Shown here in pieces: positions 1-43,973 of a stretch of 64,000 bases of DNA. Under the pieces are notes generated by a model, which was given only the letters and a program-made list of their open reading frames with translations, did not search any database and was not told the DNA's origin. The position numbers and the translations under genes were made by a program. Source of the DNA: an uncultured Planctomycetia bacterium (GTDB lineage: Bacteria > Omnitrophota > Gorgyraeia > 2-02-FULL-51-18 > JAGOUK01). Position 1 is the stretch's first letter, and each line of letters opens with the position of its first letter. The stretch is taken from positions 94,027 through 158,026 of the forward strand of contig CAYSFB010000002.1 of the NCBI GenBank assembly GCA_964430735.1, in the 5' to 3' direction.

Positions 1-3000
1 GGTCCAATCCGAACGGATTCAATACGCCCTCGGCCATATCCGTGAGCCGCATCGTCGCCATCAAATACTGGACATCCCTGAACCTCAGTACTTCCAGCGC
101 GACTGTCACCAGGTCTTGAAGATGTCCGTCTGTAATGCGGGGCACTTCCTCGAGTTTTCGGGCGGTCAAGACCACGGGATAATCTATGCCTTCGGAAGGT
201 CCGATGAAATACGGGTCGTTCAGCACGTTTTCCACAAATTGACGGGCCAATGCCTCATCCCGCAGATCGTGGCCGGCACGAACGATCTCAAGCGCCGCTT
301 TCTCGATCGGGCGCTTGGCTCCGGAGCCCTCCCACTGCGCATAGTATTCGCCGCTCAACGCTTCGTCGCTGCTCAAAGAACGCAGCAAGGACTGTGACAG
401 TGACATCAACTCGCTTTGAGCGTACGTCATGAGACTCGCACGATCCCGACGCAGGCTGGTGGGGTATTTTTCGCTCCAATAGAACATTCCGCCTTCGTTC
501 ATATCCGCCAACCCCAAAAGACCCAAAAAGTAGAGCTCGGAAGCGAGGCGGTGGATGAAATGGTGGGCTGCTCCCGCGTCTTGAGCCGCGCCCTTTAACC
601 TCAGGATCAGCCGATGCATCCGGTACACCCGATCGCTGTAATAGCGGCCGAGCGACGCTCCCAGGTAGGGGTGATCCTCGCTCAGATAAGCCCGTCGCAT
701 CTCCATCAGGTAGCCTTGAAGTTTTTCCAGCTCGGCCGCCAATTGGGGGTCCCGGACCTTTTTGAGCGCTTGCTCCGGAGAGAGGAAAACGATCTGCCGG
801 ATCCCGCGCTCAGGCAGGTCCTCCCCGGTGTCCGGCAGCAGATCGAGACCGATTATCTCCTCTTCGATCTGAGAGTGATAAACGACGCTCTGGATGTGCA
901 GAAGCGTCCATTGATTCGATCCGGGGGATTTGAATTTGTTGTGGTCCAAGATATCGACGATGATTCCGATCCGACCCTTGATCTGAGCGGTGGCTTCGCT
1001 GATCCGCAGCAGCTCAGCCGTGGAAAAGCCTTCGGCTTTTCCACGTTCGCCCAGCCGGATGACCTCATCAAGATCATCGATCAAATACCGGCGGAGCCAG
1101 CCGCTCCACTCGGCGTCACCGATCCGCGCCGGAGGCGTCTTCGGATCGAGTCCCGAAGACTTTAGAGCCGCCGCGAGCATGTCCACCCCTTCTCCGGAAA
1201 CGTGCTTTTTTTGAATACGCGACATGGTCTCCAAGACACAGCTCTGCGCCTCGTCTCTTGCCGGTCCGGGCTTCAGCATATCCCCCAATACCCAGCTCGT
1301 TTCGCGGATGAATTTGCCATTTTCGACGATAAAATCCGCCAACGCCGTCTCGGCGCGGCTCACATCCGGACGGTCTGATAACAAGACTTGGGGCGTGTCT
1401 TTGCCGTCCGCATCCTCGGCCGCTTCGAACACCAGTTTTGCCGGGTCGATCACGATCGCGGAATCTTCGCCGCGCATGGCGTCGGAGAGATAGTACAAAA
1501 ACTGCCCAGCGGCCTCCGCGTCCTTCAAAACGAGAACGCCCGGTTCCGACGGATGCTGTTGGAAGCCCGCGGCCTTTAGCCAGTTGACGATCATGAAGCG
1601 TTCCGGATGAAGCCGGAGCTTCACCGAAAAGCCGTCGTTTTGAGCGGCCATGATCTCGGACGCCAACTGCCTCAAATAGGCCGGCAACGCCACGGAATAA
1701 TCCCGATCCCCGATCTCCTTGACGCCGGCGGCCATCCTCGCGCCAAGCTCCTTCGACCCGTCCCTCTTTGCGGATCCGGAACCGGGTTCGGTTTCCACGA
1801 TCAGAGCCGGCTCTTGCCGCCGGTTCTCGGTTAGTCGGATTGTCTTGGGACTGCGGTCTCTTTGCGCCAGCCGCGCGGCTTTTGTTGGCGCAAAATAAGA
1901 TAACCCGGTAATTTCATCGACGGCTTCTTCGGCGCGAGGGCCCACAGCGGACACGGTAAGCATCGCTCCTTGACCGGCTGCCAACAAACCTATTTCGGAC
2001 ATTTCTTTTGCATTCACCGATTGCCTGCCGTCATGCAGGCGTATTTCGGTGCCTTGATAAGCTCGTGCAATCGACGCAATCTCCAGGGAGGGATGAAGGT
2101 GAATGCCGCCATCCCTGATCACAGTCACCATTCTTTGGAAAGATGCGTTTGGATTTTTTTCCGGCTGAACTTCCGCCAGCCGCGCGCCGCGGGGTGATGC
2201 AAAAACACGGTCGGACCGGGAAATCACCAGCAATGGACGCTCTCCCCATCTGGCGGGTCCGACGGGTCTCACAAAAAAGCCTTTTTCCTTGAATCTCCAT
2301 TCAGGCGCCGGACCACGGATAAAGGCCGCCCCGTTCTCGCCCACGAGCTCCCCGAGCCCTTCGATGGCCTGTGGCCAAGTCGCAAGCCTTCTCCCGCCCC
2401 GTCGGAATTCACCTTCCAAAAAGTCGTCATTGAAGACAAAATCGGAATAGACGAGGCTGTAGGTTCCGGTCAGATTCCGGTCGTCCCAAAAAGGCTTGTG
2501 ATGCAGCTTGGTCCTGGACCGGATGTCGTCGCTTACGGCCGGATCAGCCTCCAACCGGCGCTTGATCTCCACGAGGTTGGACGGACTCAAGTCGATCACG
2601 GCTTCGCGGCGCATTTGAGGAAATTCCTGATGAAGCATCATAATCTCCTGGGTGTTGCGCCCGGGACCGATGATCAGGTTGTTGCCGGCGGCCATCGCCG
2701 ACCGCGCTTCAGGAGTCAGAAGCTCCAGGCCTTTTTGGAATTGCGTTGTTTTTTCCGCTAGACGGTCGGGCGTCAGTTCGTCCCCGGTCTCGATCCCGAG
2801 ATCCAGATCAGACGAATCCGCCAAAGCCTCGCGCGAGACGCGGATCCAGTAGGGATTCAGTCCTCCGACGATTTCGACAGACCCCTGACCTAAAAACGGT
2901 TCGAGGTCCACGTCCAGCCGGATTGCGTCCAATTCGTCCGCGGTCTTGGCATTTTGGATCCGGTCATAAAGCTCGTTCACCCGCACGCTGGCCAACGTAA

Positions 3001-6000
3001 CTTTGGGGATGAGCGCCTTCAGCGCGATCTCAACCGCCTTGAATTCCTTCAGATAACCAGGATCGAACTCTCCGCGCTCAGCTGCGGCGGCGGCGGCCTT
3101 CCACACACGCGCTTCCAGATGGTAATACTGCCGCCGGGAAACACTCCGATGATCTTCAACGCCAAAGTCGTTCATTTTTGATCCCAGCATCCGCATCGTG
3201 GCGGCGACCCCATCGAATTGCTCTTCCAAATAAACCGGGTTTGAGGCGCAATTTTCACGGGTCAGCCATTGATTCGCCACTTCACGCCAGAATCCGTCTT
3301 TGCCGTGATTCGCGAAGCCTCGGATGGTTTGAACAATTTCCTGCGATTTGGGATGAAGATAATCCGCAAACGCTTCGTTGAGTTGCACTTTTTTATCCAG
3401 CCATTTACGCCGGAACTCCTCATCCATTGCCATCCGCGCGCCGTCGGCTGTTGCGGGTCTTAAGTCAGCGTCAGAAAGGTCAGGATCGCCTGTCGGCGGA
3501 TCATTCCCGTCCCAGTCCCATCCGCCTGAATTATCGCCATCGGAGTCTTCCTGATGAAAATGCAAAAGTCCGTCCCAGGCCTTCTGATAGGCGTCACCTT
3601 GTAGGATCGATCGAAAGGGGCCGATGACGGCGGACCGCTTCAAGTCGATTCCGAATTCAGGAAGCTCAAGCGCCTCGATAAGGTCATGACGATCTTTGTC
3701 AAAACCGTTGATTCCGGAATCGACACGGAGCGCTATCGTCCGATGTCTTCGTTCGGATGGAATGCTCTCGAATTCCAGAACCAGAGAGTCCGCTCTGGAG
3801 GATCGGTCCGTATCCGACCCGATGAGCGGGCCAAGAACGACCGTGGGCGGAAACTTGTGCTTCGCGAGCTGATCGTGCAGCTGACGCGCAGCCGCCTGCG
3901 TCCTGAGCTCCCCGCGCAAACGATGATCGTCGGGCGCATAAAAGATGAATTTAAAGCCCTGTTGCCGCAATTCTGACAATAGGCCGAGCGTCTCAGACTT
4001 GATCTCCTTCAAATCGCTCTTAGAGGGCCTCTCATCCGCATAATCAACGTTGACCCATGTGCTGGCATCACGCGATATCACAGAAAAATCCCCACCCTCC
4101 AGAATTTTGTCCAAATGCGGCAGGGCGCGCGGAGGCAGCGGAAGCGCGCAGTATTCCAGCAATCCTTTTCGCCGAAGCTCCTTCAATTGCTCGAGGACCT
4201 TTTCTGCCAAACCGGCGCCGAACCAATCCAGGTCCAGCATCAGCACCTCGCCCTCACGATTCAAAAGGGACTCCAGGTAATCCGCCGGTTTTTTTCCGAA
4301 TTTTTTCACATCGGCTCTCACGTTTATCCGAAAAGCGATCTGCTCCGGGTCCAAGGAACTTCGGTCTTTCCCGGATTCCGGATCGGGACGGCGGGAAGGC
4401 GTGGACAGCGCCAGGTCCGCCCGGCCTTGGTTGATTTTTTGATAAAGTTCCTGGGCGGCTGGAAAATTGGGGTTGTCTAAAAGATTCTTCCACCGCGTGT
4501 CAAAAGCCATGCTTCGTTGGATCGTGAAGGCTGCCTGATCAATCTTGTGGAGCCGGGCGGCAAGATCAAGCTGACGTTCGATTTCTTTTAGAAGTGCGGC
4601 CGGATTTCCTAAGGATGAGAGTGACTGCAGATCGTCCTCCCTCAGCGCGTCTTCCCTGCCTGCTGTCGCCACTCTTTGGATAAAATGAAGGTAAGACCTC
4701 ATTCCGTGCGTCGGCTTCCGCGCCTCGCGCATGGAATCCATAACCGCACCACCGACCAAATACAGGCCTTCCAGGACATTCTCGGACTGACGCAGGTCGA
4801 GCCAATCAAATCGCGCAGAGAACGTGTGTCGTATCAAGGCGAGCATGAACTGGTCGATGTCATCCCGCTCAATTCCGGCGGGGGCCGCACTCTCTTTTGC
4901 AATGATCCCAAAGACCCATTCGCGCACCGCGTCGATCTGATACCCGTATTCGACGAGCCATCGAAAGGCGGCTCTTTGGATGTCCGCATCGTCGGTCTGG
5001 TCATACACGGCCATGGTTCTGGTCAAAATATCCTCCGGAACGCTTTGGATCGGATCGGCAAGCTCGCGGATCGCAGCGATCGCGATTTGTTTCCGCTCAG
5101 AGTCCGTATCGGACGATTCCAAAATGCTCAGATGGTAACGGATCTGCTGCTCGACATTCGCCGCCAGCCGCGCACCGTCAGGTTCCGAATGCCGCGCCAG
5201 CTGGGAAGAAATTGTAGAATCGTACGCGTTTCGGATCGCGATCGCGTGGTCAAACGTGTCCTGCGAACCCTTGAGCAGCCCCAGAAACGCGTCGAAGCTC
5301 CAGTCCACGAATTTAAAACTGTCGCGGAGTTTTTTGGCGACCTTCTGATTGATGCCGAAGATCGTGTCCCGTCCGAGCGGAGCGAGATACGGATATTCCT
5401 GCGCGAAGTCGGCGGAACGGCCGTGGGTTACGAGAACATCCAGATCCGACTGCCACCAGCGCAGAAGGAAAAAAAGCTCCTGCAGGGATAGCGTGCGTTC
5501 GATCGAAAGGGGGCTGTACCAAAAATCGTCGGGATGCGCGGCGATCCACGGCCGGTAGACGTTCTGCCAGAGCGCGAGCTGGCTGCTCATAGACAGTCTC
5601 GGAAAGTTCCCGGGCTGGGCGTGATCGAACTTCAGCCATTCCCCGTCTTCGGTGAGTTTGCGCCGGATCAACCCCTCTTCCAGCCGCGCCTCGGCTACCT
5701 CCACGTGCGGCTGACTCTCCGGCGACAGCCACTCGTAGATGGAAAAGATCGCCGCGGCACGGGCGTGCGCGATGCGACCTTCCCGGTCATAGCCGGGGTT
5801 CTTTGCCTGGTGGGCCTTCAGGATCGTTTCGGTGTCATAGGGTGAAGGCAGGCGGAGCGTCGTAATAAAATCCAGCACTTGCCCCATCTCCACCGCGGTG
5901 TCTGAATCGGCTGTCCACTCGCGCGCCATCGACCGGCGAACAGCGGGATTTGTATCAAAGATCCCCTCATACACCTCTTTACGCGATCCGATGTCCGCCA

Positions 6001-9000
6001 GCCGCGCGCCGGAAGCGGATAGGGCCGGAAGTCCGGATTCGATCAGAAGGGACTGGAGCGCTTCTTCCTGCCGGGCCGCTGCGGTCACACCGGAGAGGGT
6101 TTCCCGATGCTGCTGGTAGAACCGCCTGCTTGCTGCTTCGCCGGCAGCGACCGCGTCGAGCGTCAAGTCGGGGCTTTGCACGTCCCGCAAAACAGCAACA
6201 AGATATTGTTCCGTGAACATGAAGGGTCTTTCGATCAAAAATCCTCGGTCTTCCTCAGGAAGTGCACGCCAGGCGGAGCGCACCAGCGAACGGACATCCG
6301 TTCCGCTGGACTCTGTCAATTCGTCCAAGAGGTCCCGAAGCTCGGGCTTACGGGGCCGCGCATCAGCACCCGCCGATTCAGGAAACACCAACGCATTCAA
6401 CAGCCATCTCTGGCGCCTGCGGTACGACACCTCTTCAGAGGCGGTGCGCATCTTGTTTTGTAGCCGGGCAAGCGCCGGGAGGGAACGTGAGAGAAAAAGC
6501 TTTATTCCGATCAGGTCTTCGTCATCAAAGCCCGTGCGATTATTCCGAAGGTGGGGACCAAAAAACGCGGCTCTCCAAGCGAGCGTTTCGTCCGAAGCCA
6601 CGGCAGCGAGCGTGCGCAATCTTTGTTCATAAAGCTGCTGACCGTCGATGTGGTACATCGTATGGAATGCCAGCCAGCGGTCGGCCGTGCCCAATTGTCT
6701 GGCCCAAGGACTTCCGGTGGACCGGAGATCCGGGATGACTTGGGCGTCAACCCGGAGCATCCACGCGGCGATCCTGTCCGCATCCCCGCTGTCCAAAATT
6801 GATTCCGCCTGGAAAAAAAGTTCGCGTTCCGAGGGATTCAACAGCAGGTAAGATTTTTCTGCGGGCGCTTGTTTAAGCTGATGGGTCATGTAGGCGCTTC
6901 TGTCAGATGCCCCTTCCGCAGTACGGTCTTTGGCTACCGACAGCCGCGCCGCGGATATCCGCGGAAACGGCGATTTTAGATGACCAGAGTCAAAAATCGC
7001 CATATGGTTTTTGTCGTCGGGCAGTCGGCGCACGTCGACCCGCATCGGGTAGGATGCGGACTGAAGCAGACGTGTCGGGATGTCGTTGTCGATGATGCTG
7101 AGAAGCCCCGCTCCGAAGCGGGCCCGGGTTCCGGTGAGATCGATGTGACGGAAAACGCCGTCCTCGTCCGGGTAAGAGAGGAAGTGGATGGTTTCGCAGT
7201 ATGCGGCGAGGCGCGGAATGGCCTTTCGCAGGGCTTCGGCGTCTTTCAGATCGACCCGGACGACCAATGGGTCGTTGAATCGCTCCATGATCCAAACCGC
7301 CAAATGGCGCAGCCCGGCAACCGCCAAATATAGAGGAGACAAAAACACCCATGCAGCCATCCGCGCGCCGGAATCATCCGCCCCGTCTCCATGTGACGAT
7401 TTGGGACCGGGAGCGGGTTTGGTTTTCGCGGCTTCCGTCGCGATGCGGGTGATTTTGGAACTCACGAACCACACCCAGACAGCCGAGGCGACCGAGGTGA
7501 CTGCAAAGAAATTCCACGGGTTATCCGATCCGTAAGCCAGGCGCGTCACGGGATACCAGTAACAAAAATTGTATGGCAGCATCTCGAGCACCATGCGGAC
7601 CTGCGGATTTCGAACGAACCCGGTCAGGCCTTGCTGCCGCAGTTCGCGCCAGAGATTGATTTTTTCTCCGAACACGAACGCCATCGTCAAACTGAGGGGG
7701 GTGTGCACCAAATTCGCGGCGATGCCGATATCAAAAGCCGATCGATGCGCCGCGTCTGGAATGGCCTTCAGCACGAACGGCAGCCAGACAGTGTATTGAT
7801 GAAACGATCCGATGAGGCCCGAACTGAGCGCCCATCCCCATGCGCTGGAAACGCGATCCGCAATCGAGCCCTCCTCTCTCATTGTTTTGGCGACAAAAAT
7901 GGTGACGAACACCGTGCATACGCGGGCCAGCGCCCGTCCGAGGTTTTGCAGGTTCATGTGATCCAACCCGAACGCGAACATCAGCCCGATCGGCGCACCC
8001 ACGATCGCCACCTGCTTCCACTTGTTGGGGTATTGACTGGCAAAAATAATCAATGCGAGGAGCGACCACCCCTTGAGCATGGTGGGAATGCCATTGCTCC
8101 AACCCCAGGCATACTCCCAATAGACTTGCGGACTCAAACTACTCAAGGCAACTACGGACATATACGCGATGCCGACCCACCCGGTCAGTTTCAGCGCCTC
8201 ATTCAAAAAGTGCCTGACGGATTTTTGATGCGACATTCGCGCGCCCACGGGGCTTGAGGAGGAAGTCAGGTCGGGGTTGAACCAGTCGAAGGAGCGGTTC
8301 CGCTGCGGTTGGAGCCAATCGGACAAAAAGCCTTCGAGCCATGGAAAACGGCGCGTTCTCTTTCTGGAAATATCGATATCATAGTTCTGCAGTGTGCCGT
8401 CCGGAACTGTCGTCACCGACAAGCCACCCGCATAATCGCCCCCATCTCGCGGCCCGGACGGATCCCGGATCACCTCAATTCGGTAATACCTATCCACGGC
8501 TCTTTCGGATCCATGCCCGCCCTCATCCGTTTGCAGCCGGATCATATAAGGAACGCCGTTGGCCGTATATTTGAGGCAGATCACCTCAGGGGTTCCCTCG
8601 GGCGCAAACCGCGTGACAAAGTAGAGATCCGGTCGATCAAGAGCCTGATGAAACGCATCCGGTTCCTCGAGGTTCCATCCTTCAAGAGCCAGGGCGAGCC
8701 GCAGCAACGGATACGCGACTCCCCAAACCGCCGGGCGATCGCTCTCTCCGGGTTCAAGGCGGATCCGAGCGGTGCGTTCCGGCCCTGCAAGAAGCTCGAG
8801 ATAACCGATCTTCCGAACGCCCTCCCCGCCCCTCACCTGAACGGATCCGTCATCCGTCACCAGGAGCCGGGTTCTTGAGGCCGTCTCCTGAGAGCGTGAG
8901 CCCGGATGCGTCGGGATGAAGCGCGGATGATCGTCAAAGAATTGTGCGACCGAAGCGATCGCAAGCGCACCCGCGCGGTCGTGATTCGTTTGTATTGGAA

Positions 9001-12000
9001 AAAGCGTGTCCAATCCGGCATGCGGCGAGCCCTCTTGATCGATGTCCAGCATCTCGACCGCAGGGACTTGCGCTTCGCCGGCCGGCCGCACGGAGGCATC
9101 CAGCCGATCCAAAATTTTTTGAATCACGGCAGTCCGGTATTTCTTTTCGAAAAAATGCCCCATCCCTTTGACGATGGTGAGCGATGCAGGGGCATGCAGG
9201 TTGATAAAGCGTGCATACATCGCGTAAAAAATCGCGAGGATCGGCCCGCCCAAAAACATGAGATTGTCCATTTGGCCGACGACGTAATGATGGGGAATCT
9301 CCTGCATAAAGGAGATGTCGAACGGATCGTTCACCCATTCCCCGGTCTGTGCAAACCAGGGCTTAAAACCCTGCCACTTGCCGATCGGCGCACGAGCCGC
9401 GGTTCTCCATTCACGCCACTTTTGCTCAAGACGATAATCCGGAACCGCCGCAGCAATGGACCGCGCAAATGCGCCGTTACGGATAATCTGAAGAAGCGCT
9501 CGGGACGGATCAAGGGGTGAGGCCATGCCGAACACGGCCCCGATCTTCAATCCGGCGAATCTCGGATCGTTGCCGCCGGCTGCCAGCGAGGCGATGCGCT
9601 CTACCGTCCAGCCTCCGTAACTATGGCCGAACCAGAAGGTTCGCTCAAGATCCATTCGAGGATACATGCCGGGCTGTGCGGTTCGAAGCGATGATAGGAT
9701 TCGGTGCAGATCGTCGATCGAATCGCCCCACGTGAAAGTGGAGACATCTCCGCTGCTGGCGTTGCGGTTATCGGCGGAGGCGCGCGTGGTTTCGTCCCAA
9801 ACCCTGCCGCGATGTCCTCGAAGATCGGGCCGAACCACGGCAAAGCCGCGGCCGGCGACCGCCCGGGCAAGTTCGGCAATCAGGGGTTCGGAGGCGCTGC
9901 TTTGCCACCCATGGACGATAAAGGCCGTCGGAAACGGTCCCTCGCCGTCCGGGTAATCAACATAAAAAACGATTCTTTCGTCCGGTTTGCCGGTGAGCGG
10001 AAAAGACAGCTCATATGCCGCCTCCCACAGATCGCCGACACGCTGCGGCTCCCTGAGCCGGCGCAGACTCTGACGATTTCCCCGCGACTCACGATCCATC
10101 CCCAGACGCAGAGCCCCGACTTCCAACGGATCAACGTTGACGGCTCCGGATCCGGTCGGCTGGACAAAGTTCGATAAGTCGGGCCGCGCATCCAGGCCTC
10201 CCGCGAACCGGCGGTCGGCCAAACCTCCGGTCAATGCATCGATCTCATCCAGCAGGATCTCCGCACGTGACGCAAGCCCTATGGCTGCTCCGGCGCCGGA
10301 GGCGGACGATTGAATAAGCTGCTCATACAGGTCTTCGAGTGATTCTCCCTCCACATAGCGCATCCAAATCGCAGGCGCCGTTTCGCCGGCCCCGGTCCGG
10401 ACTTCAATCACCCCGAGCATTTCGACGACATCCAGCCCATGTCGTTTCAGGCCTCCATTGACCTCAACGACGCGGTCCAAAACCCGGGTCGTGACGCCCG
10501 GTATTTGGTCAAAAATCTTGATCGCCAGCCCTTTCGCGTGATTCACATACACGCTTCCCTGTGCGCCCGAGTCGTGATACGCATACGGTTCCCCTTCGAA
10601 ATACACCGTCGCCACACTCCCCCGCCCGCGATCCGATGCCGCCATCCGGGCGCCGTCCTGACCTTCCTCCGGCAGCAATTCACCGGGCTGCTTCTCGAGC
10701 GGCCAGTAGTCCGGCTGGCCGGAGAGTTTGATAAAGGTCCGGCTGTCCTTGGCGAGCTGCAGTTCCAGCATCGTGCCTTCGGGCCCTCTACGCAGCCAGA
10801 CATCCACGCCCGAAGCCGCGTCTCCCCTCAGAAGAAAATCTCCCAACTCGAGATCATTGATGCCGGGAGCCAGATAGATGCCGTTTATCTTGTAGACTTC
10901 GATCAAATGCCGGATATAGGCATAGAATTTTCTATCCGCTTCGTCGAGCCACGGCAACGAAAACCAGGACAGCGTGCTCATCGTAGGCCCCCCGTCTGGA
11001 AGCTTCTCCCGGCCTTCGGGTCCGTAGAACCGGCTGATCCCCATTTTTTCCAAGGCTCTGACCACCTTCGTCATCGGCTCCTTCCGCCGCTCCCAGGACC
11101 AGTCGCTGTTTTTGTCGTGGCTCCACGACCAGGCCATCCGCGCGCCTGATGCCGGCTTCGCATTCCTGCGGAATACGGCAGCAGCGGTCGGGGCTTGAAC
11201 ATTCACGCCCATGAAGTTGAATCTGCTGAACGTGCTGCCCGAGCCGGCCACGGCACGAAGCGACGATTCCAGCGCCTCCTTTTCCTCCCGCGAAAGCCAT
11301 TCGTCGTACAGCGTGTATTCCCCTCCCTCCGTCAGAACGCGCCGAGCGACATCGAGGTCGGCGGCATCCGAGACGATAATTTGGGCCGGACGCAGCAACC
11401 GGACGGCCTGTTTCAGGTAATTTCCCAAATCTGCGTCCGCTTTAGCCTGCTCCCTAAAACCAAAAACGTAGGACCTCAGCCCTTTAATGAGGAGAGTCAA
11501 GCTATCCGCGGAATTGACGTTCGCCAAACTCCTGGCTTTGGCATACATTCGGTCATCCAAAATATCGCCTTTGACATAACTCATGCGGACCCGGTCGTAC
11601 GGAAGGCCCAGCATGCCGGCGGCGGCTGCGCGCGAAGAGTGCTCGAGAAAATCGATCCGTTCGTCGCTTCGGGTGATCGCGACTGTCGGAGCGTATAAGC
11701 CGATATACCCGTCATATCCCGCTGCAGGATAAATGACCGTCTGCCCGTCCAGGAGGCCGCGTGAATCCAGGAGCCCGAAGTACGCCGCGGAATATCGGGC
11801 GACGGAACCGTCCTTCGAACCCGGCGCCTTCGGATCGCCCCCGCTGATCCCGCGCATGAGGACAGTCCAGGGGTCTTCGAGACCCGCCAGCCGCGCGCCA
11901 TATACCTTCCGGCCGTCCGGAAGATTGGCGAGGATATGAACCGGTCGGGGGTTGTCCCCGGCCTGTGTCCGACGGATCTCGACCTTGCCCCCGCCGAGAT

Positions 12001-15000
12001 CGTCGATCTCGATCTTTCCGAAATAAACGTTGGAATGGACCTGGGACATCACCCGGCCGTTGATCCGAATTAACGGCTCCGTCCCCCCGTCCATTTGAAC
12101 GACGATCCTGGGCGGCTGGCCAGCCTCGATCGTGACCGGATAAATGTTATCCAGCTCCCGCATTTGGACGTAAGGCCTACCGGTGTAAGAAGTCTTGTCG
12201 GCGGGCCCGTCGTCCAAAGCAAGGACAAAAGACTGGGAACCGCTGATGATGCGCGTCGAATGACCGGGCAGAAGATCCAAAACAACCGGCTGCCAGGGGA
12301 CCAGCTGGGCCAATCGGCTCCCCTCGATCAACCCCTCGGCCTCCAGTTCTTTTAAAAACCGCCGGACCTGTTCGTAGTGCTCCCAATACTCGGGAGAAGG
12401 CGCCCATCCTGAATCGGCGTCCTGAGGGTAGATATCCAACAGGTTGTACAGATACTCTTCGGCCCTGTCGCCCGGACGCAGCGGACGGACGCTGCCGGTG
12501 TCCAGCAGGATATAGCGGTCCGGATTCTGCAGTCGGTAACCGAGCTGCTTCAGGGAAAAAATATCAGCAAAGATATATCCTTTACGAAGCAATTCTTTGA
12601 ACAGCCGGAAATATGCCGGATAATCCATGCGACGCACCAGTCGGTGCCGCTTCTGCAGGATCACGTACGGAAATTCATCCGAGATCATTTCCCGCATACC
12701 GTCGGACAACGACGCGATGTCCTCCGCGCTCAAAGGAATCAAAATGGGCTCCGTCGTGCTTCCCCGCAGCTCGGGGTTCTGCGCGGTCAACGCCCCTTCG
12801 AGCACGTCGCGGATGATGTCCTGGTGGGTCTGTTTGATTCTGACCCAGCCCTGATAGAGGGGGTGAGTACGCTTGGGTACGATTTTGAGGACCAGATCGG
12901 GATAAGTCATGCTTTTCAGAACGAACACCTGCGTGCCGACATTCGCGGATTCAAAAATCTTCCAGTCCGCGGACAGGATTTTTTTCAAAATGGCTGTCCG
13001 CTCGTGCGGCCAATCCGCCATCAGCAGCTGCCCGTCCAAATATCGCTCGAGATACAGAACCGCGTCATCCAGCGCCGCGTGTCGCATTCGTTCGTCTTCC
13101 GACAATCCCGAGAGTGCCGTGCGGATGTTCTCCAACGTCTGAACGTCCGTCAGTTCCAGATGCCCGGCTTTGATCCGGATCTTTTCCAGTCCGTCCAAAA
13201 TCCGGAATCGGGCCGCTTCTCCGTAGCGTGCGGCCAATGAATCGACCTGCTGGGCGACAACTGCGTCCTCCGCCAGCCGCGCGCCCTGCCCCGCGCGGAG
13301 ACGCTGCTTCAGCCGCTCATATCCGTCCAAGGCCGGCTGGCGCGACGGGCGTTCCAGAAGTCTAAAATAATCGGCTGCGATCGGTCCGCCGATGACCAGG
13401 TCGTTCAAATCCGCCGCCGTCGAGGTTGCGGCCTCGGTCCGGTGCATCAGGTACAGGATCGACTCAGAAACAGACCACTCCACGGCCCACCGATAGGGTT
13501 CCGGCAACGCTGAAGGCGATAACGATTCGACGACCGCGACCGCTTCACCCAAATACGCGCGCGCCGGGATCCCCGCTTGCTCGGCTCCCGACAGGAGCGG
13601 CTCCCATGCGTCAACACCGGCGAGCGGGTGGATCAGCATCTGCGCGCGCTGCGAAACGTCCCGTCGTTTCGCCCACTGCGGCCAGTGCGCAAGCAGCCGT
13701 TTATAAAACAATCCGACACCCCAGGCCTCGGCTTCGCCATCCCGCGGCGACTTGCCGCGAAGCGCCATTCCCGAAAGTGCGGTCCGAAGCAGGAGGGTGT
13801 CGTCGTCTGCGATCTCGTTCAAGGCCGCAAAACGCTTCTTGAGCATCTCCGCCGGCATGGGATAGGTCGTGTGGAACAGCCACCACCGCGCGGCGCTCGG
13901 AAGTGATTCGTACGCGGCGCCTTCGGGACGTAATTTTTGAATGACGTCATCGACGAGCTTCATCCGTACGCGGACGAACTCGATCCGCTCCGGGTCCGTC
14001 ACGTTGTAACCGGCCGGATCCGAACCGTCGAGCCGGATCGCGCTCGAGGCGATATTGAGGAGGATTTCCGTCAGGTCAAAAAGCTTTTTGCCTCCGGCTC
14101 CGCGGCTCGAAAACACCGCATCCCACTCGACCACCGTGTCGATCTTGCCGAAGGGCAGGTCGTCGAAGTGCGCCGAGCCGAGGGTGAGTTTTTTCCTGGC
14201 CCAGGACCATTTCTGGGCTGTCGTTTCGCCGGCAAGTACCTTGGTTCCGGAAAGCTCGAGCGTGCGGCGCAGAATATCGTCCAGCACCGGGTCGGCTTCC
14301 TGCTCGAGTTTTTCCAGCCGCGTCTGACCGACGCCCGGGTGCCGCGGAGCGCCGGTAAACTCCAATGCGATCTGGTCCAGCAGCCCGTAAATGCGCTGCT
14401 CGACCAGGGTCAGGATCTCGTAATCGTCCCTTTCCGAGTCGCCGGCGTCTCCGGTATCGCTGTCCTGCGTTCGCAGAACCTCGAGCTGGCGCCGGATCGT
14501 AAACCCGATCCATTGATGAAAGGCGTCTCCGGCCAGGTCAGCAAAGATCTTTTTTTCCTCCCGGACAGAGATCTTTTCGTTCGTATGGGAAACGACCCAG
14601 CCTCGGGCGTCCAACGTCGGGATTTGAACCTTCATATAGCCGTTTTTCATCGCCGTCAGGATGTCCAGGAACGCTTCGTACCGGCCGGTTCTCAGAAGGT
14701 TCTTTAAAAAGCGCAGGAACCGCTCCGGGATCAGAAGCCCCGTGTCCACCACCGGAAGCAGGGACAAAAACTGTCCGCTCCAGCCGTTGATCCGGTACAC
14801 CAGATCGAATTCGCCCAACGCCATCGCCCGGTGCGTCAGCCGCAGCAGTCCCGTCTGATATTCGATGATGCGTTCCCGAAGCTTGCGGAAGAGCATCCTC
14901 CGTCTTTCGAATGCGGGATCTTTTTTCGAAGCAGACGCGTACTGCTCTTCATGCTGGATGCGGTCGATCATTCCGTCCGGCGTCCGGGGGGCGTGACGGG

Positions 15001-17617
15001 CGATCTGCGTTACCTCCAGAGCCAGCGGCTTGGCCTCGAGCATCAGCTGCTCGAACTCGTCCCGGATCTTCCGGGCCTGCAGGCGTGTTTGAACCCAATC
15101 GATCAGGTACTGGAACCAGGCGCGTATGCGGAGCCGGGACGAGACGTATTCTTTTTCCTTGAGACTCCACTCGCGGTCGAACTGCCTCATCGACCACGCC
15201 ATCGTGCCGGCGGTCACGCGCGCTTGGCGCAACTTTTGGATCTGCTGATACCATTCCCATCCGTACAGAATGTCGAAGGCCATCCGAATCACTTCCGGCG
15301 ACCGCTCCCGTCCGTCCAGCCCCGAGGAGCTGCTCAGACGCGCCAACTCCTCCATCGAACAGTACATCATCGGCCGGTTCCGGCTGATCCGCCATCTTCC
15401 CCAACGATACCGGAACGACGGAGTCGGCACGAGGAGCCGCGTCTGCGGGATCACCGCCGCGATCATCATGTTCCTGCGTACTTGACCGGCTGAAGGGAAC
15501 TGGTCCCGGGGAAAGATCCTCTCGTCTTCCAGCGCGGCGAACACCGCCCGCAAATTGATCTCCGCACGCGGAAACAGCCGCGTGTAGCGCTCGAGCTTCT
15601 CACGGGCTTCGGCGAGTTCGCGGGCGAGCCGCTCGGAGCGGACCTCGCGCAGATCTGAGACAGGTTCGCGGCCGGTCCGCTCCAACTCCTCCTCCAGCAG
15701 CTTGATGTCGGTTCTCAGCTTGGACGGATTGATCGGATCGGATTCGTCGGGACGCTTCGAGTAATGCCCATCGCCCTGATGCATCAGCTTCCACGGAAGT
15801 GAACGGATCTTGCTGTCTGCGATCAGCATCAGCTTCATCGGCCCGCGCAAGTGGAGACGTCCCGATTTTTTCAGAGTCTCGTCCTCCTGTCCCGACGCCA
15901 GCCGCGCGCCGGAATCTTCACGAAGATCTCTTTGGCGTAAATGGCTCAGCGCCGAGCGGATCTGAGATTCGGTCCCTTCCGCGCCGGCAAGCCGGGCAGC
16001 AGCCATAGAGTCGAAGACGCCGGTGTCGGCCAGCGCCAGTTTGGGGATGTGGCGAAAAACACCGGGCGAAGCAGAAGTGTTGATACCGCGCTTCAAAGGC
16101 ATGAGCAGGATTTTTTCGTATTGGACGCGGTCGGTTTGTGTCCGGACTTGAGGGGTCAGGATCGCCCAGCCGTACCCCTCCTGCGCCAGAAGCTCTTTGA
16201 GGTGGTCGGTGTGATAACCGCCGGCGATGAGAACCGCGGCCTTTTGCCCCGAGGCATCCAGCGTCCGGCCGGCGCGGGCGACGAGCGAATGATCGCGGAG
16301 ATTCACGAGCGTGTAAAAAGCACGGATCAGACTCCAGGAGCGGTCCAAAACGGCTGTTTCCGGAATCCGGACATCCAAAAGTCCGAGCTGATCCGATTTT
16401 TTATGTAAAAAGCTTTTCCACTCCCCTGATTCAAAATACTTACGGTTCTGCCGGAGCTGCCGGAACTCACGGGAGGTGAGCTTGAGGTCGAAGGCCTTTT
16501 GGATCAGGTCAAAATAAATGCCGAGCAGCGCGATCTTGCGCGCGTCCTCGTCCGGAAGCAGTTGACGGTAGGAGCGGGCTTCGAGCTCCTCGGATTCACG
16601 GGCGAGAGCGTCCCAATCCATCCCGCGAAAAGTCCCCAGATATTCCGCGTAGCGGCGCAGATGCGGATATTCCCCTTCCGCGAGGTCCAGGAGCGACCGG
16701 ACGAGACGCTCGCGCTCGGCGGGAAGCGCGGCGCGGCCCAATCCATCCGCCAACGCCTGTGCGGCCTGCGACCGGGGACCGGACTCCAGCCGCCGCAGCA
16801 GGGCGTCCTGCTCCAGCGACAATGCCTCGTAGTTCATCGACGCATCCGTCCATTTGAGAACCTTGAGCTTCAAAAAAGACGGGTACGCATTGAGACTCAC
16901 GCGCGCCGCGTCCGCCAGCTTGAGCAAACCATCGATCGCCCGGATCGAGCCATCCGCTCCCGCTTCACGTTTCGCCCGCTCATAGTCCAGAAGCGTATCC
17001 GGATACAGCCGGTCTTTGAATGCCTGAAGCGCGTTCCGAACCTCCTGCCATTCGCGCGATGCGGCTCCCCTCACCGACGCGACGCGCGCATACGCCAACA
17101 ACGCCGCGCCGTAATGCCGGGTGTTTTCCACGCCGTGTAATTCCACGTCGGCTCCGCCGGTCAAACTCAGGTGCTCAGGTCCGCTCAAAATTCCTTCGCG
17201 AAGCAACTGCTCGGCGCCGAGCTTCAATTCACGCGGGCCGACCACCGCGCGCAACGAACCCAGGTCCGCGCGGCGGCTGCCGCCTTCGAGCAGGACGGTG
17301 CGGATGCCGTAGGTTGAAGACAGGGCGCGGATCGCAGCGGCGATGTTTTTTTGGCCTTCGTAATTGCCGTGGGGATCTTCGATGAGGACGAGAAGGCGGC
17401 CGTTCGATCCGGCATGCGCTTCTTTGAGCTGAACCGTTCCGGCGGGAAGGTCGATGCGCAGCGGGTTGGCGACCAAACCGGCCAGACCGGAGCCTTTGGC
17501 TTCCGGCCGCACCGGCACACGCTCTCCCAGCGACGCCGCCGCCCAGGAAATATCCTGAGCGATCAAAGCGATCGCCAAAGTCATAGCCGTTGTTTTTAAA
17601 AAGCGCTTAAAGCCCAT
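1..17617 (-). CDS. Giant multidomain protein (giant A), partial: the start codon and more than 5,870 N-terminal codons are in the window, the C-terminus lies beyond window position 1. It has a signal peptide, an N-terminal Tiki/TraB/ChaN/erythromycin-esterase-like domain (paralogous to the N-terminus of the 4429-aa protein at 48158..61447) and an internal alpha/beta-hydrolase domain (~9100..9990)
   Basis: Not listed in the ORF track because there is no in-window stop. Every minus-strand ORF the track lists between 1 and 17600 has its start coordinate = 0 or 2 mod 3, and none is in the frame = 1 mod 3, so that frame must be open all the way to the window edge. Hand translation from ATG 17617..17615 (RBS-like AAGAAGGG 5 nt upstream, in-frame TAA further upstream) gives MGFKRFLKTTAMTLAIALIAQDISWAAAS..., a signal peptide. 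It then reads ...NGRLLVLIEDPHGNYEGQKNIAAAIRALSSTYGIRTVLLEGGSR... and ...AAVLIAGGYHTDHL... The frame stays open and protein-like for ~1,350 codons (17617 to ~13550) and at every other point sampled (10018..9540, 9060..9000, 5100..5040, 240..180). Translating 10018..9540 gives ...FIVHGWQSSASEPLIAELARAVAGRGFAVVRPDLRGHRGRV...ERTFWFGHSYGGWTVERIASL..., a textbook alpha/beta-hydrolase nucleophile elbow (G-H-S-Y-G) preceded by an HG oxyanion motif. Confidence 0.65.
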   Translation of the reverse strand, partial: MGFKRFLKTTAMTLAIALIAQDISWAAASLGERVPVRPEAKGSGLAGLVANPLRIDLPAGTVQLKEAHAGSNGRLLVLIEDPHGNYEGQKNIAAAIRALSSTYGIRTVLLEGGSRRADLGSLRAVVGPRELKLGAEQLLREGILSGPEHLSLTGGADVELHGVENTRHYGAALLAYARVASVRGAASREWQEVRNALQAFKDRLYPDTLLDYERAKREAGADGSIRAIDGLLKLADAARVSLNAYPSFLKLKVLKWTDASMNYEALSLEQDALLRRLESGPRSQAAQALADGLGRAALPAERERLVRSLLDLAEGEYPHLRRYAEYLGTFRGMDWDALARESEELEARSYRQLLPDEDARKIALLGIYFDLIQKAFDLKLTSREFRQLRQNRKYFESGEWKSFLHKKSDQLGLLDVRIPETAVLDRSWSLIRAFYTLVNLRDHSLVARAGRTLDASGQKAAVLIAGGYHTDHLKELLAQEGYGWAILTPQVRTQTDRVQYEKILLMPLKRGINTSASPGVFRHIPKLALADTGVFDSMAAARLAGAEGTESQIRSALSHLRQRDLREDSGARLASGQEDETLKKSGRLHLRGPMKLMLIADSKIRSLPWKLMHQGDGHYSKRPDESDPINPSKLRTDIKLLEEELERTGREPVSDLREVRSERLARELAEAREKLERYTRLFPRAEINLRAVFAALEDERIFPRDQFPSAGQVRRNMMIAAVIPQTRLLVPTPSFRYRWGRWRISRNRPMMYCSMEELARLSSSSGLDGRERSPEVIRMAFDILYGWEWYQQIQKLRQARVTAGTMAWSMRQFDREWSLKEKEYVSSRLRIRAWFQYLIDWVQTRLQARKIRDEFEQLMLEAKPLALEVTQIARHAPRTPDGMIDRIQHEEQYASASKKDPAFERRRMLFRKLRERIIEYQTGLLRLTHRAMALGEFDLVYRINGWSGQFLSLLPVVDTGLLIPERFLRFLKNLLRTGRYEAFLDILTAMKNGYMKVQIPTLDARGWVVSHTNEKISVREEKKIFADLAGDAFHQWIGFTIRRQLEVLRTQDSDTGDAGDSERDDYEILTLVEQRIYGLLDQIALEFTGAPRHPGVGQTRLEKLEQEADPVLDDILRRTLELSGTKVLAGETTAQKWSWARKKLTLGSAHFDDLPFGKIDTVVEWDAVFSSRGAGGKKLFDLTEILLNIASSAIRLDGSDPAGYNVTDPERIEFVRVRMKLVDDVIQKLRPEGAAYESLPSAARWWLFHTTYPMPAEMLKKRFAALNEIADDDTLLLRTALSGMALRGKSPRDGEAEAWGVGLFYKRLLAHWPQWAKRRDVSQRAQMLIHPLAGVDAWEPLLSGAEQAGIPARAYLGEAVAVVESLSPSALPEPYRWAVEWSVSESILYLMHRTEAATSTAADLNDLVIGGPIAADYFRLLERPSRQPALDGYERLKQRLRAGQGARLAEDAVVAQQVDSLAARYGEAARFRILDGLEKIRIKAGHLELTDVQTLENIRTALSGLSEDERMRHAALDDAVLYLERYLDGQLLMADWPHERTAILKKILSADWKIFESANVGTQVFVLKSMTYPDLVLKIVPKRTHPLYQGWVRIKQTHQDIIRDVLEGALTAQNPELRGSTTEPILIPLSAEDIASLSDGMREMISDEFPYVILQKRHRLVRRMDYPAYFRLFKELLRKGYIFADIFSLKQLGYRLQNPDRYILLDTGSVRPLRPGDRAEEYLYNLLDIYPQDADSGWAPSPEYWEHYEQVRRFLKELEAEGLIEGSRLAQLVPWQPVVLDLLPGHSTRIISGSQSFVLALDDGPADKTSYTGRPYVQMRELDNIYPVTIEAGQPPRIVVQMDGGTEPLIRINGRVMSQVHSNVYFGKIEIDDLGGGKVEIRRTQAGDNPRPVHILANLPDGRKVYGARLAGLEDPWTVLMRGISGGDPKAPGSKDGSVARYSAAYFGLLDSRGLLDGQTVIYPAAGYDGYIGLYAPTVAITRSDERIDFLEHSSRAAAAGMLGLPYDRVRMSYVKGDILDDRMYAKARSLANVNSADSLTLLIKGLRSYVFGFREQAKADADLGNYLKQAVRLLRPAQIIVSDAADLDVARRVLTEGGEYTLYDEWLSREEKEALESSLRAVAGSGSTFSRFNFMGVNVQAPTAAAVFRRNAKPASGARMAWSWSHDKNSDWSWERRKEPMTKVVRALEKMGISRFYGPEGREKLPDGGPTMSTLSWFSLPWLDEADRKFYAYIRHLIEVYKINGIYLAPGINDLELGDFLLRGDAASGVDVWLRRGPEGTMLELQLAKDSRTFIKLSGQPDYWPLEKQPGELLPEEGQDGARMAASDRGRGSVATVYFEGEPYAYHDSGAQGSVYVNHAKGLAIKIFDQIPGVTTRVLDRVVEVNGGLKRHGLDVVEMLGVIEVRTGAGETAPAIWMRYVEGESLEDLYEQLIQSSASGAGAAIGLASRAEILLDEIDALTGGLADRRFAGGLDARPDLSNFVQPTGSGAVNVDPLEVGALRLGMDRESRGNRQSLRRLREPQRVGDLWEAAYELSFPLTGKPDERIVFYVDYPDGEGPFPTAFIVHGWQSSASEPLIAELARAVAGRGFAVVRPDLRGHRGRVWDETTRASADNRNASSGDVSTFTWGDSIDDLHRILSSLRTAQPGMYPRMDLERTFWFGHSYGGWTVERIASLAAGGNDPRFAGLKIGAVFGMASPLDPSRALLQIIRNGAFARSIAAAVPDYRLEQKWREWRTAARAPIGKWQGFKPWFAQTGEWVNDPFDISFMQEIPHHYVVGQMDNLMFLGGPILAIFYAMYARFINLHAPASLTIVKGMGHFFEKKYRTAVIQKILDRLDASVRPAGEAQVPAVEMLDIDQEGSPHAGLDTLFPIQTNHDRAGALAIASVAQFFDDHPRFIPTHPGSRSQETASRTRLLVTDDGSVQVRGGEGVRKIGYLELLAGPERTARIRLEPGESDRPAVWGVAYPLLRLALALEGWNLEEPDAFHQALDRPDLYFVTRFAPEGTPEVICLKYTANGVPYMIRLQTDEGGHGSERAVDRYYRIEVIRDPSGPRDGGDYAGGLSVTTVPDGTLQNYDIDISRKRTRRFPWLEGFLSDWLQPQRNRSFDWFNPDLTSSSSPVGARMSHQKSVRHFLNEALKLTGWVGIAYMSVVALSSLSPQVYWEYAWGWSNGIPTMLKGWSLLALIIFASQYPNKWKQVAIVGAPIGLMFAFGLDHMNLQNLGRALARVCTVFVTIFVAKTMREEGSIADRVSSAWGWALSSGLIGSFHQYTVWLPFVLKAIPDAAHRSAFDIGIAANLVHTPLSLTMAFVFGEKINLWRELRQQGLTGFVRNPQVRMVLEMLPYNFCYWYPVTRLAYGSDNPWNFFAVTSVASAVWVWFVSSKITRIATEAAKTKPAPGPKSSHGDGADDSGARMAAWVFLSPLYLAVAGLRHLAVWIMERFNDPLVVRVDLKDAEALRKAIPRLAAYCETIHFLSYPDEDGVFRHIDLTGTRARFGAGLLSIIDNDIPTRLLQSASYPMRVDVRRLPDDKNHMAIFDSGHLKSPFPRISAARLSVAKDRTAEGASDRSAYMTHQLKQAPAEKSYLLLNPSERELFFQAESILDSGDADRIAAWMLRVDAQVIPDLRSTGSPWARQLGTADRWLAFHTMYHIDGQQLYEQRLRTLAAVASDETLAWRAAFFGPHLRNNRTGFDDEDLIGIKLFLSRSLPALARLQNKMRTASEEVSYRRRQRWLLNALVFPESAGADARPRKPELRDLLDELTESSGTDVRSLVRSAWRALPEEDRGFLIERPFMFTEQYLVAVLRDVQSPDLTLDAVAAGEAASRRFYQQHRETLSGVTAAARQEEALQSLLIESGLPALSASGARLADIGSRKEVYEGIFDTNPAVRRSMAREWTADSDTAVEMGQVLDFITTLRLPSPYDTETILKAHQAKNPGYDREGRIAHARAAAIFSIYEWLSPESQPHVEVAEARLEEGLIRRKLTEDGEWLKFDHAQPGNFPRLSMSSQLALWQNVYRPWIAAHPDDFWYSPLSIERTLSLQELFFLLRWWQSDLDVLVTHGRSADFAQEYPYLAPLGRDTIFGINQKVAKKLRDSFKFVDWSFDAFLGLLKGSQDTFDHAIAIRNAYDSTISSQLARHSEPDGARLAANVEQQIRYHLSILESSDTDSERKQIAIAAIRELADPIQSVPEDILTRTMAVYDQTDDADIQRAAFRWLVEYGYQIDAVREWVFGIIAKESAAPAGIERDDIDQFMLALIRHTFSARFDWLDLRQSENVLEGLYLVGGAVMDSMREARKPTHGMRSYLHFIQRVATAGREDALREDDLQSLSSLGNPAALLKEIERQLDLAARLHKIDQAAFTIQRSMAFDTRWKNLLDNPNFPAAQELYQKINQGRADLALSTPSRRPDPESGKDRSSLDPEQIAFRINVRADVKKFGKKPADYLESLLNREGEVLMLDLDWFGAGLAEKVLEQLKELRRKGLLEYCALPLPPRALPHLDKILEGGDFSVISRDASTWVNVDYADERPSKSDLKEIKSETLGLLSELRQQGFKFIFYAPDDHRLRGELRTQAAARQLHDQLAKHKFPPTVVLGPLIGSDTDRSSRADSLVLEFESIPSERRHRTIALRVDSGINGFDKDRHDLIEALELPEFGIDLKRSAVIGPFRSILQGDAYQKAWDGLLHFHQEDSDGDNSGGWDWDGNDPPTGDPDLSDADLRPATADGARMAMDEEFRRKWLDKKVQLNEAFADYLHPKSQEIVQTIRGFANHGKDGFWREVANQWLTRENCASNPVYLEEQFDGVAATMRMLGSKMNDFGVEDHRSVSRRQYYHLEARVWKAAAAAAERGEFDPGYLKEFKAVEIALKALIPKVTLASVRVNELYDRIQNAKTADELDAIRLDVDLEPFLGQGSVEIVGGLNPYWIRVSREALADSSDLDLGIETGDELTPDRLAEKTTQFQKGLELLTPEARSAMAAGNNLIIGPGRNTQEIMMLHQEFPQMRREAVIDLSPSNLVEIKRRLEADPAVSDDIRSRTKLHHKPFWDDRNLTGTYSLVYSDFVFNDDFLEGEFRRGGRRLATWPQAIEGLGELVGENGAAFIRGPAPEWRFKEKGFFVRPVGPARWGERPLLVISRSDRVFASPRGARLAEVQPEKNPNASFQRMVTVIRDGGIHLHPSLEIASIARAYQGTEIRLHDGRQSVNAKEMSEIGLLAAGQGAMLTVSAVGPRAEEAVDEITGLSYFAPTKAARLAQRDRSPKTIRLTENRRQEPALIVETEPGSGSAKRDGSKELGARMAAGVKEIGDRDYSVALPAYLRQLASEIMAAQNDGFSVKLRLHPERFMIVNWLKAAGFQQHPSEPGVLVLKDAEAAGQFLYYLSDAMRGEDSAIVIDPAKLVFEAAEDADGKDTPQVLLSDRPDVSRAETALADFIVENGKFIRETSWVLGDMLKPGPARDEAQSCVLETMSRIQKKHVSGEGVDMLAAALKSSGLDPKTPPARIGDAEWSGWLRRYLIDDLDEVIRLGERGKAEGFSTAELLRISEATAQIKGRIGIIVDILDHNKFKSPGSNQWTLLHIQSVVYHSQIEEEIIGLDLLPDTGEDLPERGIRQIVFLSPEQALKKVRDPQLAAELEKLQGYLMEMRRAYLSEDHPYLGASLGRYYSDRVYRMHRLILRLKGAAQDAGAAHHFIHRLASELYFLGLLGLADMNEGGMFYWSEKYPTSLRRDRASLMTYAQSELMSLSQSLLRSLSSDEALSGEYYAQWEGSGAKRPIEKAALEIVRAGHDLRDEALARQFVENVLNDPYFIGPSEGIDYPVVLTARKLEEVPRITDGHLQDLVTVALEVLRFRDVQYLMATMRLTDMAEGVLNPFGLD

Positions 17618-17682
17618 CCAACCCTTCTTTTATTTGCCGCTTATTTATATAGAGGGGAAAAAGAATATTACCCGCAAGTATA

Positions 17683-43880: not shown

Positions 43881-43973
43881 ACACCCACACGCTATCATGC
43901 GAGTCAGTGTATGTCAACTTGTGATAAGTATTGTTTATTATGGATTAGAAGGATTTAACTCGGAAATGGGCGT

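Follow-up and report, generated by a model that had tools for sequence, protein, structure and literature searches.

Giant proteins of Omnitrophota have been described under the name 'Archaeovorins' (West-Roberts et al., bioRxiv 10.1101/2023.11.21.568195), a class of more than 30 kaa (thousand amino acids, aa). [quoted passage not shown] Here we analyse two giant genes, A and B, in a 64,000-nucleotide (nt) stretch of Omnitrophota DNA (the window, assembled from run SRR14271366), and the domain with which both of their products begin, hereafter the head. A, B and a third gene, C, are the three very long minus-strand genes of the window. The two that carry the head are:

2..17617, minus strand: giant gene A (open frame 2..17629, ATG at 17617, MGFKRFLK...), reaching past the window start
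48158..61447, minus strand: giant gene B, whose 4,429-aa product matches database protein P0003 exactly

The in-window part of A amounts to 5,872 codons and is the exact start of database protein P0004, whose full length is 7,894 aa. Like the 'Archaeovorins', A and B are mosaic, mostly unannotated Omnitrophota proteins, with a signal peptide and transmembrane segments (a crude hydropathy scan found hydrophobic segments in A/B). HEAT repeats, another 'Archaeovorin' feature, are present in B at residues ~3121-3191 (HEAT_2, E-value 3.5e-13), and the embedded enzyme domains of 'cytoplasmic type' have their counterpart in an HPr domain and an alpha/beta hydrolase in A. However, A and B (7.9 and 4.4 kaa, respectively) are smaller than that class.

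For the head, the closest described proteins are those of the TIKI fold, in which a parallel sheet core carries a set of two His and two Glu together with a conserved basic residue (PMC6254334). In RRSP, the Ras/Rap1 endopeptidase of MARTX toxins, the set is E3900, H3902, E3930, R4001 and H4030; H85 and E113 are the corresponding residues given for Bcr135 (PMC6254334).

An N-terminal head common to giants A and B

The original prediction held that A and B share an N-terminal module that aligns residue for residue behind a similar signal-anchor. The peptides it quoted are present on the minus strand, where 15937-17410 corresponds to A residues ~70-560 and 59857-61180 to B residues ~90-530. BLASTP of the N-terminal ~700 aa of A against those of B confirmed the common module, giving a single collinear alignment over 577 columns (96 bits, E-value 9e-25) with 23% identity, 40% positives and 10% gaps. 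The collinearity and the equal motif spacings bear out the claimed correspondence, but a strict register is not kept at this level of identity and gaps. The alignment begins inside the hydrophobic anchor (LTLAIALIAQDISWAA in A, LTLVAAMLMQDILWAA in B), and both heads do follow a similar anchor. Outside the head, no similarity between A and B was found. A hidden Markov model (HMM) of the head, searched against the six-frame translation of the window, detected exactly two copies (E-values 3e-157 and 1e-148). The parts of the two copies are as follows; strands and the limits of the core and insertion in A come from the predicted model, and conservation refers to 151 aligned heads.

17528..17617, minus strand: A residues 1-30, basic N-terminus, signal-anchor and QDISWAAAS, read from the sequence
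16082..17446, minus strand: A head, residues ~58-512, a predicted alpha/beta core of TIKI type into which a helical domain is inserted
17102..17446, minus strand: A core, N-terminal half, residues 58-172, with strands 62-68, 75-81, 107-110 and 159-162
16343..17101, minus strand: A all-helical insertion ('lid'), residues ~173-425
16082..16342, minus strand: A core, C-terminal half, residues 426-512, a long helix followed by strands 460-466 and 483-489
17369..17383, minus strand: A motif I-E-D81-P-H83 at a strand end (D 100%, H 99% conserved)
17279..17296, minus strand: A motif V-L-L-E111-G-G, with its Glu 28 residues past His83 (conservation 100% for E and G)
16286..16303, minus strand: A motif N-L-R441-D442-H-S (R 100%, D 89% conserved)
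16208..16225, minus strand: A motif A-G466-G467-Y-H469-T, with its His 28 residues past Arg441 (conservation 100% for both G and for H)
61223..61315, minus strand: B residues 45-75, hydrophobic signal-anchor and QDILWAAPAA
59783..61210, minus strand: B head, residues ~80-555
61136..61150, minus strand: B motif I-Q-D102-A-H104
61046..61063, minus strand: B motif V-A-L-E132-G-A
60023..60040, minus strand: B motif I-R-R472-D473-R-M
59945..59962, minus strand: B motif T-G-G-F-H500-S

Complete members of the family start with a basic stretch and a single hydrophobic segment. Right behind this anchor, a [DE][ILV][AS][WYH]AAP-like motif is found in 92 of 142 relatives (A residues 20-29, 17531-17560; B residues 63-72). 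Because a proline lies directly behind Ala-x-Ala, the anchor is probably not cleaved by signal peptidase I. Across the 151 heads the first conserved motif reads I-Q-D81-A-H83-x-N-x-x-x-Q89 (Q89 conserved at 99%), and further conserved positions are G142, G162-x-E164, Y169, F434-Y435, P489 and Y500.

The family to which the two heads belong is very large. An exhaustive scan with a HMMER profile built from four sequences returned 9,729 cluster representatives (clusters at 50% identity) at E-values <=1e-3, and 6,228 at <=1e-30. In a scan of one genome per species, 520 genomic loci were confirmed. The match starts between residues 1 and 93 in all 150 listed relatives, whose lengths range from 496 to 7,894 aa, with 49 above 3,000 aa and 15 above 5,000 aa. 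Nearly all of the 80 listed loci come from Omnitrophota-type metagenome-assembled genomes (MAGs), several of which have 3-4 loci each. This tally takes in third-party annotation MAGs labelled 'uncultured Planctomycetia', and the 80 loci also include two labelled Eisenbacteria and one labelled 'Deltaproteobacteria'. Neither Pfam nor NCBIfam has a model for the head, and word-indexed protein searching was nearly blind to the family, with 2 matches for head A, none for a membrane module of A and 1 for a 31-sequence profile.

The head is the N-terminal hallmark of a very large collection of long, mosaic and mostly unannotated Omnitrophota proteins. This single, hugely expanded family, with about 10,000 clusters (50% identity), is now open to naming, to fold assignment and to tests of its putative catalytic site. 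Neither the head family nor the linker joints treated below are described in the 'Archaeovorin' preprint (bioRxiv 10.1101/2023.11.21.568195) or in a 2026 Omnitrophota preprint, and our literature search found nothing on the linker motif or on a link between TIKI proteins and Omnitrophota.

Relationship of the head to TIKI-type families

The original prediction assigned the module to the Tiki-type superfamily from a His/Glu/His pattern. This pattern is present in both heads: H83 is followed by E111 and R441 by H469 in A, and H104 by E132 and R472 by H500 in B, with a distance of 28 residues every time. Two residues could be added to it, the invariant Asp of D-x-H and the Arg located 28 residues before the last His. 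The residue order is that of RRSP and Bcr135; His and Glu are separated by 28 residues in all three, and Arg and His by 28 residues in the head as compared with 29 in RRSP.

AlphaFold models of the two heads (predicted local distance difference test, pLDDT, 70 and predicted template modelling score, pTM, 0.62 for A; pLDDT 68 and pTM 0.55 for B) display a small core of parallel strands flanked by helices, as in the TIKI fold. In the model of A, D-x-H ends strand 75-81, E111 lies just past strand 107-110 and GG-x-H ends strand 460-466; the two His and two acidic residues, conserved at 99-100% in the 151 heads, are thus placed at the ends of core strands. The basic residue of the fold has its equivalent in R441 (A) and R472 (B), 100% conserved. 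The core is interrupted by an all-helical domain between residues ~166 and ~456 of A. In a head of ~450-480 residues, the two core halves are therefore predicted to be parted by a helical lid of ~250-290 residues, at the place where Ere enzymes also carry a helical domain. Structure comparison with Foldseek went in the same direction, with EreC ranked first and second and BcR135 fourth, but the best E-value was only 0.023.

Several results weigh against this assignment. The first acidic residue of the head is Asp, where the described set has Glu. No Foldseek match reached an E-value <=1e-3, and the models (pLDDT 68-70) were built from an alignment of four sequences. No method gave a significant sequence or profile link between the head and any TIKI family: the NCBIfam scan of the heads returned nothing above cut-off, HMMs of the head and of the core alone (insertion removed) matched PDB sequences at chance level only, and hhalign against E. 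coli YbaP alone, or against a home-made TraB/GumN profile of nine sequences built from plasmid homologues, gave probabilities of 0.1-0.2%. In the latter alignment the C-terminal RD/RN and GGxH/GAxH columns were paired, without significance.

The three Pfam families named by the original prediction (PF01963, PF04187 and PF05139) did not bring the expected support, as no head exceeded any Pfam cut-off. PF04187 (ChaN, 'Tiki superfamily') was the sole recurrent family and turned up in 7 of the 31 heads scanned and in 8 of the 19 constructs reduced to the core; its best match had an E-value of 0.015 and 15.7 bits, for a gathering score of 27.7 bits. All of these matches place FY..RD..GGxH at positions 159-205 of the 213 in the profile, that is, they cover the C-terminal motif only. 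PF05139 was absent from the two heads (E-values <=1) and from the families listed for 31 full heads (E-values <=1) and 19 cores (E-values <=5), and PF01963 gave no Pfam match in the same two heads, 31 heads and 19 cores. On the other hand, no profile placed the head confidently in an unrelated family. If the head were a generic alpha/beta domain of three layers plus a helical bundle, and its His/Glu/His pattern a product of convergence or chance, it would stand outside the superfamily altogether. The residue pattern adds weight to the TIKI assignment beyond the weak fold matches, and we regard such an outside origin as improbable. The head is probably a divergent new family of the TIKI/Ere/ChaN/TraB superfamily that falls in none of its named member families.

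Comparison with these member families illustrates the divergence. The best fold matches of the head are the Ere-type enzymes EreC (6xcq/6xcs) and Bcr135/Bcr136 (3b55, 2rad, 2qgm), of ~400 aa; no significant sequence or PF05139 match connects them to the head. Ere enzymes have G-E-x-H-G at the first motif, where the head has Q-D-A-H. The helical insertion of the head is about twice as long as theirs and, unlike them, the head follows a membrane anchor and continues into other modules that add up to thousands of residues. TraB/PrgY/GumN and Tiki proteins (PF01963; 8bqs_DQ) gave an hhalign probability of 0.2%. TraB proteins stand alone, with ~250-400 aa and without the long lid of the head, and the spacings in YbaP (+26 and +24) differ slightly from the +28 and +28 of the head. 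ChaN (PF04187; 2g5g), matched by the head at scores well under the gathering threshold, is a small lipoprotein that binds haem; the head, by contrast, has a complete catalytic-type residue set and a large insertion. Finally, RRSP (5w6l) is an internal effector module of MARTX and the head is N-terminal. The head is not categorically new, because its predicted fold and chemistry belong to a known superfamily; what is new is an enormous family that had not been filed, its constant place at the front of mosaic giants in Omnitrophota, and an unusually long lid.

The head could also be a non-catalytic module for handling the chain (recognition, chaperoning or anchoring for export) or a ChaN-like binder of haem or another ligand. 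ChaN is the only recurrent Pfam hint, the head is strictly N-terminal in all 150 listed proteins, and B is flanked by genes for cytochrome-c biogenesis (resB, ccsA-like) and by hemA; the logic of a conserved head on a giant exoprotein is moreover displayed by giant C and its secretion domain. However, the full set of two His, two acidic residues and Arg is conserved at 99-100%, and PMT, a non-enzymatic TIKI member, lacks that residue set (PMC6254334). In addition, no partner transporter was identified adjoining A or B. A non-catalytic head is an unlikely alternative in our view. Overall, we lean towards an anchor followed by a divergent TIKI-type head that is a hallmark of Omnitrophota giants and would act as an exported or tethered hydrolase.

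The GAR[L/M]A linker and module shuffling

A short motif, [GA]-A-R-[ML]-[AS], recurs behind the head. It occurs 15 times in the in-window part of A, for 0.2 expected from shuffled sequences, 22 times in the full protein and 3 times in B; at the peptide level it was absent from the other window genes, including giant C. The copies in the window are:

15986..16000, minus strand: AARLA, A residue 540, first after the head (GCT codon, outside the DNA pattern)
15896..15910, minus strand: GARLA, A residue 570, second after the head
13271..13285, minus strand: GARLA, A residue 1445
11885..11899, minus strand: GARLA, A residue 1907
11132..11146, minus strand: GARMA, A residue 2158
10640..10654, minus strand: GARMA, A residue 2322, edge of a block common to P0006
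8231..8245, minus strand: GARMS, A residue 3125, edge of a membrane module common to P0006 and P0147
7355..7369, minus strand: GARMA, A residue 3417
6938..6952, minus strand: AARLS, A residue 3556
5996..6010, minus strand: GARLA, A residue 3870, block edge
5162..5176, minus strand: GARLA, A residue 4148, block edge
3428..3442, minus strand: GARMA, A residue 4726
2174..2188, minus strand: GARLA, A residue 5144, directly ahead of the HPr module
1865..1879, minus strand: AARLA, A residue 5247, directly behind the HPr module
1730..1744, minus strand: GARMA, A residue 5292
59159..59173, minus strand: AARMA, B residue 759, first in B, just ahead of a cluster of hydrophobic segments
53342..53356, minus strand: GARMA, B residue 2698
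49565..49579, minus strand: GARLA, B residue 3957

The motif is a property of the family. GARMA (83 copies for 0.27 expected, 307-fold) and GARLA (176 for 1.4, 124-fold) were the most enriched 5-mers in the tails of family members. The copies lie in a P/S-rich context ([P]-[SA]-G-A-R-[LM]-A) without wider conservation, at a median spacing of 352 aa. Among 57 motif-bearing proteins, 41 have a copy within 150 aa behind the head; copies within the head itself are limited to a single protein. At related loci the motif is 12-fold denser in head-bearing open reading frames (ORFs) than in other ORFs, and all seven exceptions outside head-bearing ORFs fall in large ORFs that the end of the locus truncates.

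The database protein P0006 (7,206 aa) is a close homologue of A (P0004), with heads that are 64% identical. The two proteins share blocks of 52-90% identity arranged in a different order, some cassettes reaching 80-92%, and most of the remainder is unrelated. In both proteins the majority of block ends are no more than 8 residues away from a GARxA motif, indicating that the motif marks the joints of exchangeable cassettes, the head being the first of them. This comparison is direct evidence of recent cassette exchange and of module permutation between homologous giants. Permuted modules are also a feature of MARTX toxins, as a functional analogy only. The modules downstream of the head are mosaic, and in roughly half of the family members their boundaries carry the short linker. 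Since the motif splits many giants into modules, their informatic dissection is now possible.

Two embedded domains of A can be located with respect to these joints. The HPr domain (PF00381, E-value 3e-12) lies at 1904-2137 on the minus strand, residues ~5161-5238, with linker motifs on either side at residues 5144 and 5247. By eye, its His15-equivalent seems to be kept (GIHLHPS), and the Ser46 position is occupied by Glu. At residues ~2566-2676 (9590-9922, minus strand), an alpha/beta-hydrolase match (Hydrolase_4, S33-like) has an E-value of 2e-5, just under the Pfam cut-off; it sits within an 800-residue cassette common to P0006 at 87% identity.

The motif also has a marked codon usage. A DNA-level pattern of it gave 18 matches for 0.75 expected, of which 17 are on the minus strand, all within A and B; the remaining one (1170-1183) is on the plus strand, opposite giant A. 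In A the motif is encoded almost uniformly as GGC GCG CGG [A/C]TG GCG, with the commonest codon for each residue. In relatives CGG, GCG and GGC are over-used at the motif, CGG being found in 27 of 51 cases against a background of 18%. This bias may reflect translational accuracy, an RNA or DNA function, or microhomology for cassette recombination. Because codons vary between genomes and DNA identity at the joints is only 15-19 nt, selection appears to act mainly on the peptide, and the same two observations rule out a repeat that is purely DNA-level as the main explanation. Internal translation starts at the fourth codon (ATG or CTG) were also ruled out: no Shine-Dalgarno-like sequence was found, the frame is continuous, and in relatives the fourth codon can also be TTG, CTT, CTC or CTA.

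Possible function of the head and setting of the giant genes

Both giants open with the same cassette of basic N-terminus, single hydrophobic signal-anchor and head. The head is most likely a membrane-tethered, exported hydrolase. It would be exported, or fixed to the inner membrane on its outer face, and would act through a water molecule activated by His and Glu, as proposed for Ere enzymes and RRSP. A common logic of export or processing for the two giants, as suggested by the original prediction, is plausible.

As for its substrate, the reading that we prefer, tentatively and at well below even chances, is that the head is a peptidase acting on its own giant chain. The P/S-rich GAR[L/M]A linkers would be the candidate sites, and the giants would be matured into separate pieces. 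The model here is the MARTX toxins, although processing there is carried out by a different protease, a cysteine protease domain; neither such a Pfam domain nor RTX repeats were found in A or B. Our estimate is kept low because head-bearing proteins that lack the motif keep the active site: 50 of 98 listed head-bearing proteins larger than 1,500 aa have no GAR[LMF][AS] and retain the catalytic residues, and no obvious substitute motif was found in these 50 proteins.

The same proteins are in line with a TIKI-type hydrolase that is active on an external target, such as the envelope of a prey or host, a signalling peptide or a small molecule, and is displayed at the front of many different surface giants. 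Its top fold matches are enzymes of the erythromycin-esterase type that have a helical lid, and Omnitrophota giants have been proposed to serve in predation and cell-wall attack (bioRxiv 10.1101/2023.11.21.568195). However, this would explain neither why the head is always the first module, directly behind the anchor, nor why it is itself usually bounded by a linker motif, and we consider an external target rather doubtful.

Whatever the head cuts, the motif need not be its substrate. The joints could be cleaved by another protease or never be cleaved, serving as flexible joints or as points of in-frame recombination. Half of the large head-bearing proteins do without the motif, motif-bounded modules are permuted between P0004 and P0006, and the near-fixed DNA of the motif in A, with the over-use of CGG, GCG and GGC in relatives, points the same way. 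An alternative candidate for the processing protease is found near A, which also counts against self-processing:

19888-24444, minus strand: gene whose 1,518-aa product has a subtilase (S8) domain at its C-terminus; two genes upstream of A, with a transketolase gene between

C39 and S8 domains have indeed been proposed as processing enzymes of the giants (West-Roberts et al., bioRxiv 10.1101/2023.11.21.568195). Against this, DNA identity at the junctions extends over only ~15-19 nt and selection seems to fall mainly on the peptide, and the motif was seen in no ORFs other than those that bear the head or are truncated by the end of a locus. That the linkers are not cut by the head is quite possible, while falling short of probable.

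To return to the self-processing peptidase, its most far-reaching version would make the giant ORFs bacterial polyproteins. The head, first out of the translocon and tethered next to it, would cut the chain at GAR[L/M]A into dozens of proteins, with the in-frame joint of ~15 nt doubling as microhomology for shuffling. We hold this version to be unlikely as it stands. Nevertheless, the linker motifs could mark the long-sought cutting points of the giants and offer a precise site for proteomics, and with the head family and the joint motif in hand, the question of whether the giants are polyproteins becomes an experiment.

The window is otherwise an ordinary chromosome segment, with genes for transketolase, hemA, resB/ccsA, a Na/H exchanger and the S8 peptidase. 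The genes next to B (46279-48128 and 61726-63489; locus L082) are resB and a ccsA-like gene on one side, and a ccsA/hemX-like gene and hemA on the other. This haem and cytochrome-c neighbourhood is curious beside the weak ChaN likeness of the head, but may be a coincidence.

The third giant is built differently:

32841-43898, minus strand: giant C, 3,685 aa

Its N-terminus is a two-partner-secretion (TPS) domain (PF05860, E-value 5e-26) with a visible NPNG motif, followed by Gly-rich, beta-helix-like repeats; neither the head domain nor a GARxA motif was found in it. The TPS domain was detected only when the N-terminal 450 aa were scanned alone, and was missed by the Pfam scan of the whole protein.

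Finally, a conserved helix of head A (residues ~128-150, ~17168-17236; 'AE.lL..G.ISG.EYL') weakly resembles 'AEsLLRNGSISVREF', a segment repeated in phycobilisome linker-type proteins of the PDB (E-values 0.035-0.57), which is probably a chance likeness.

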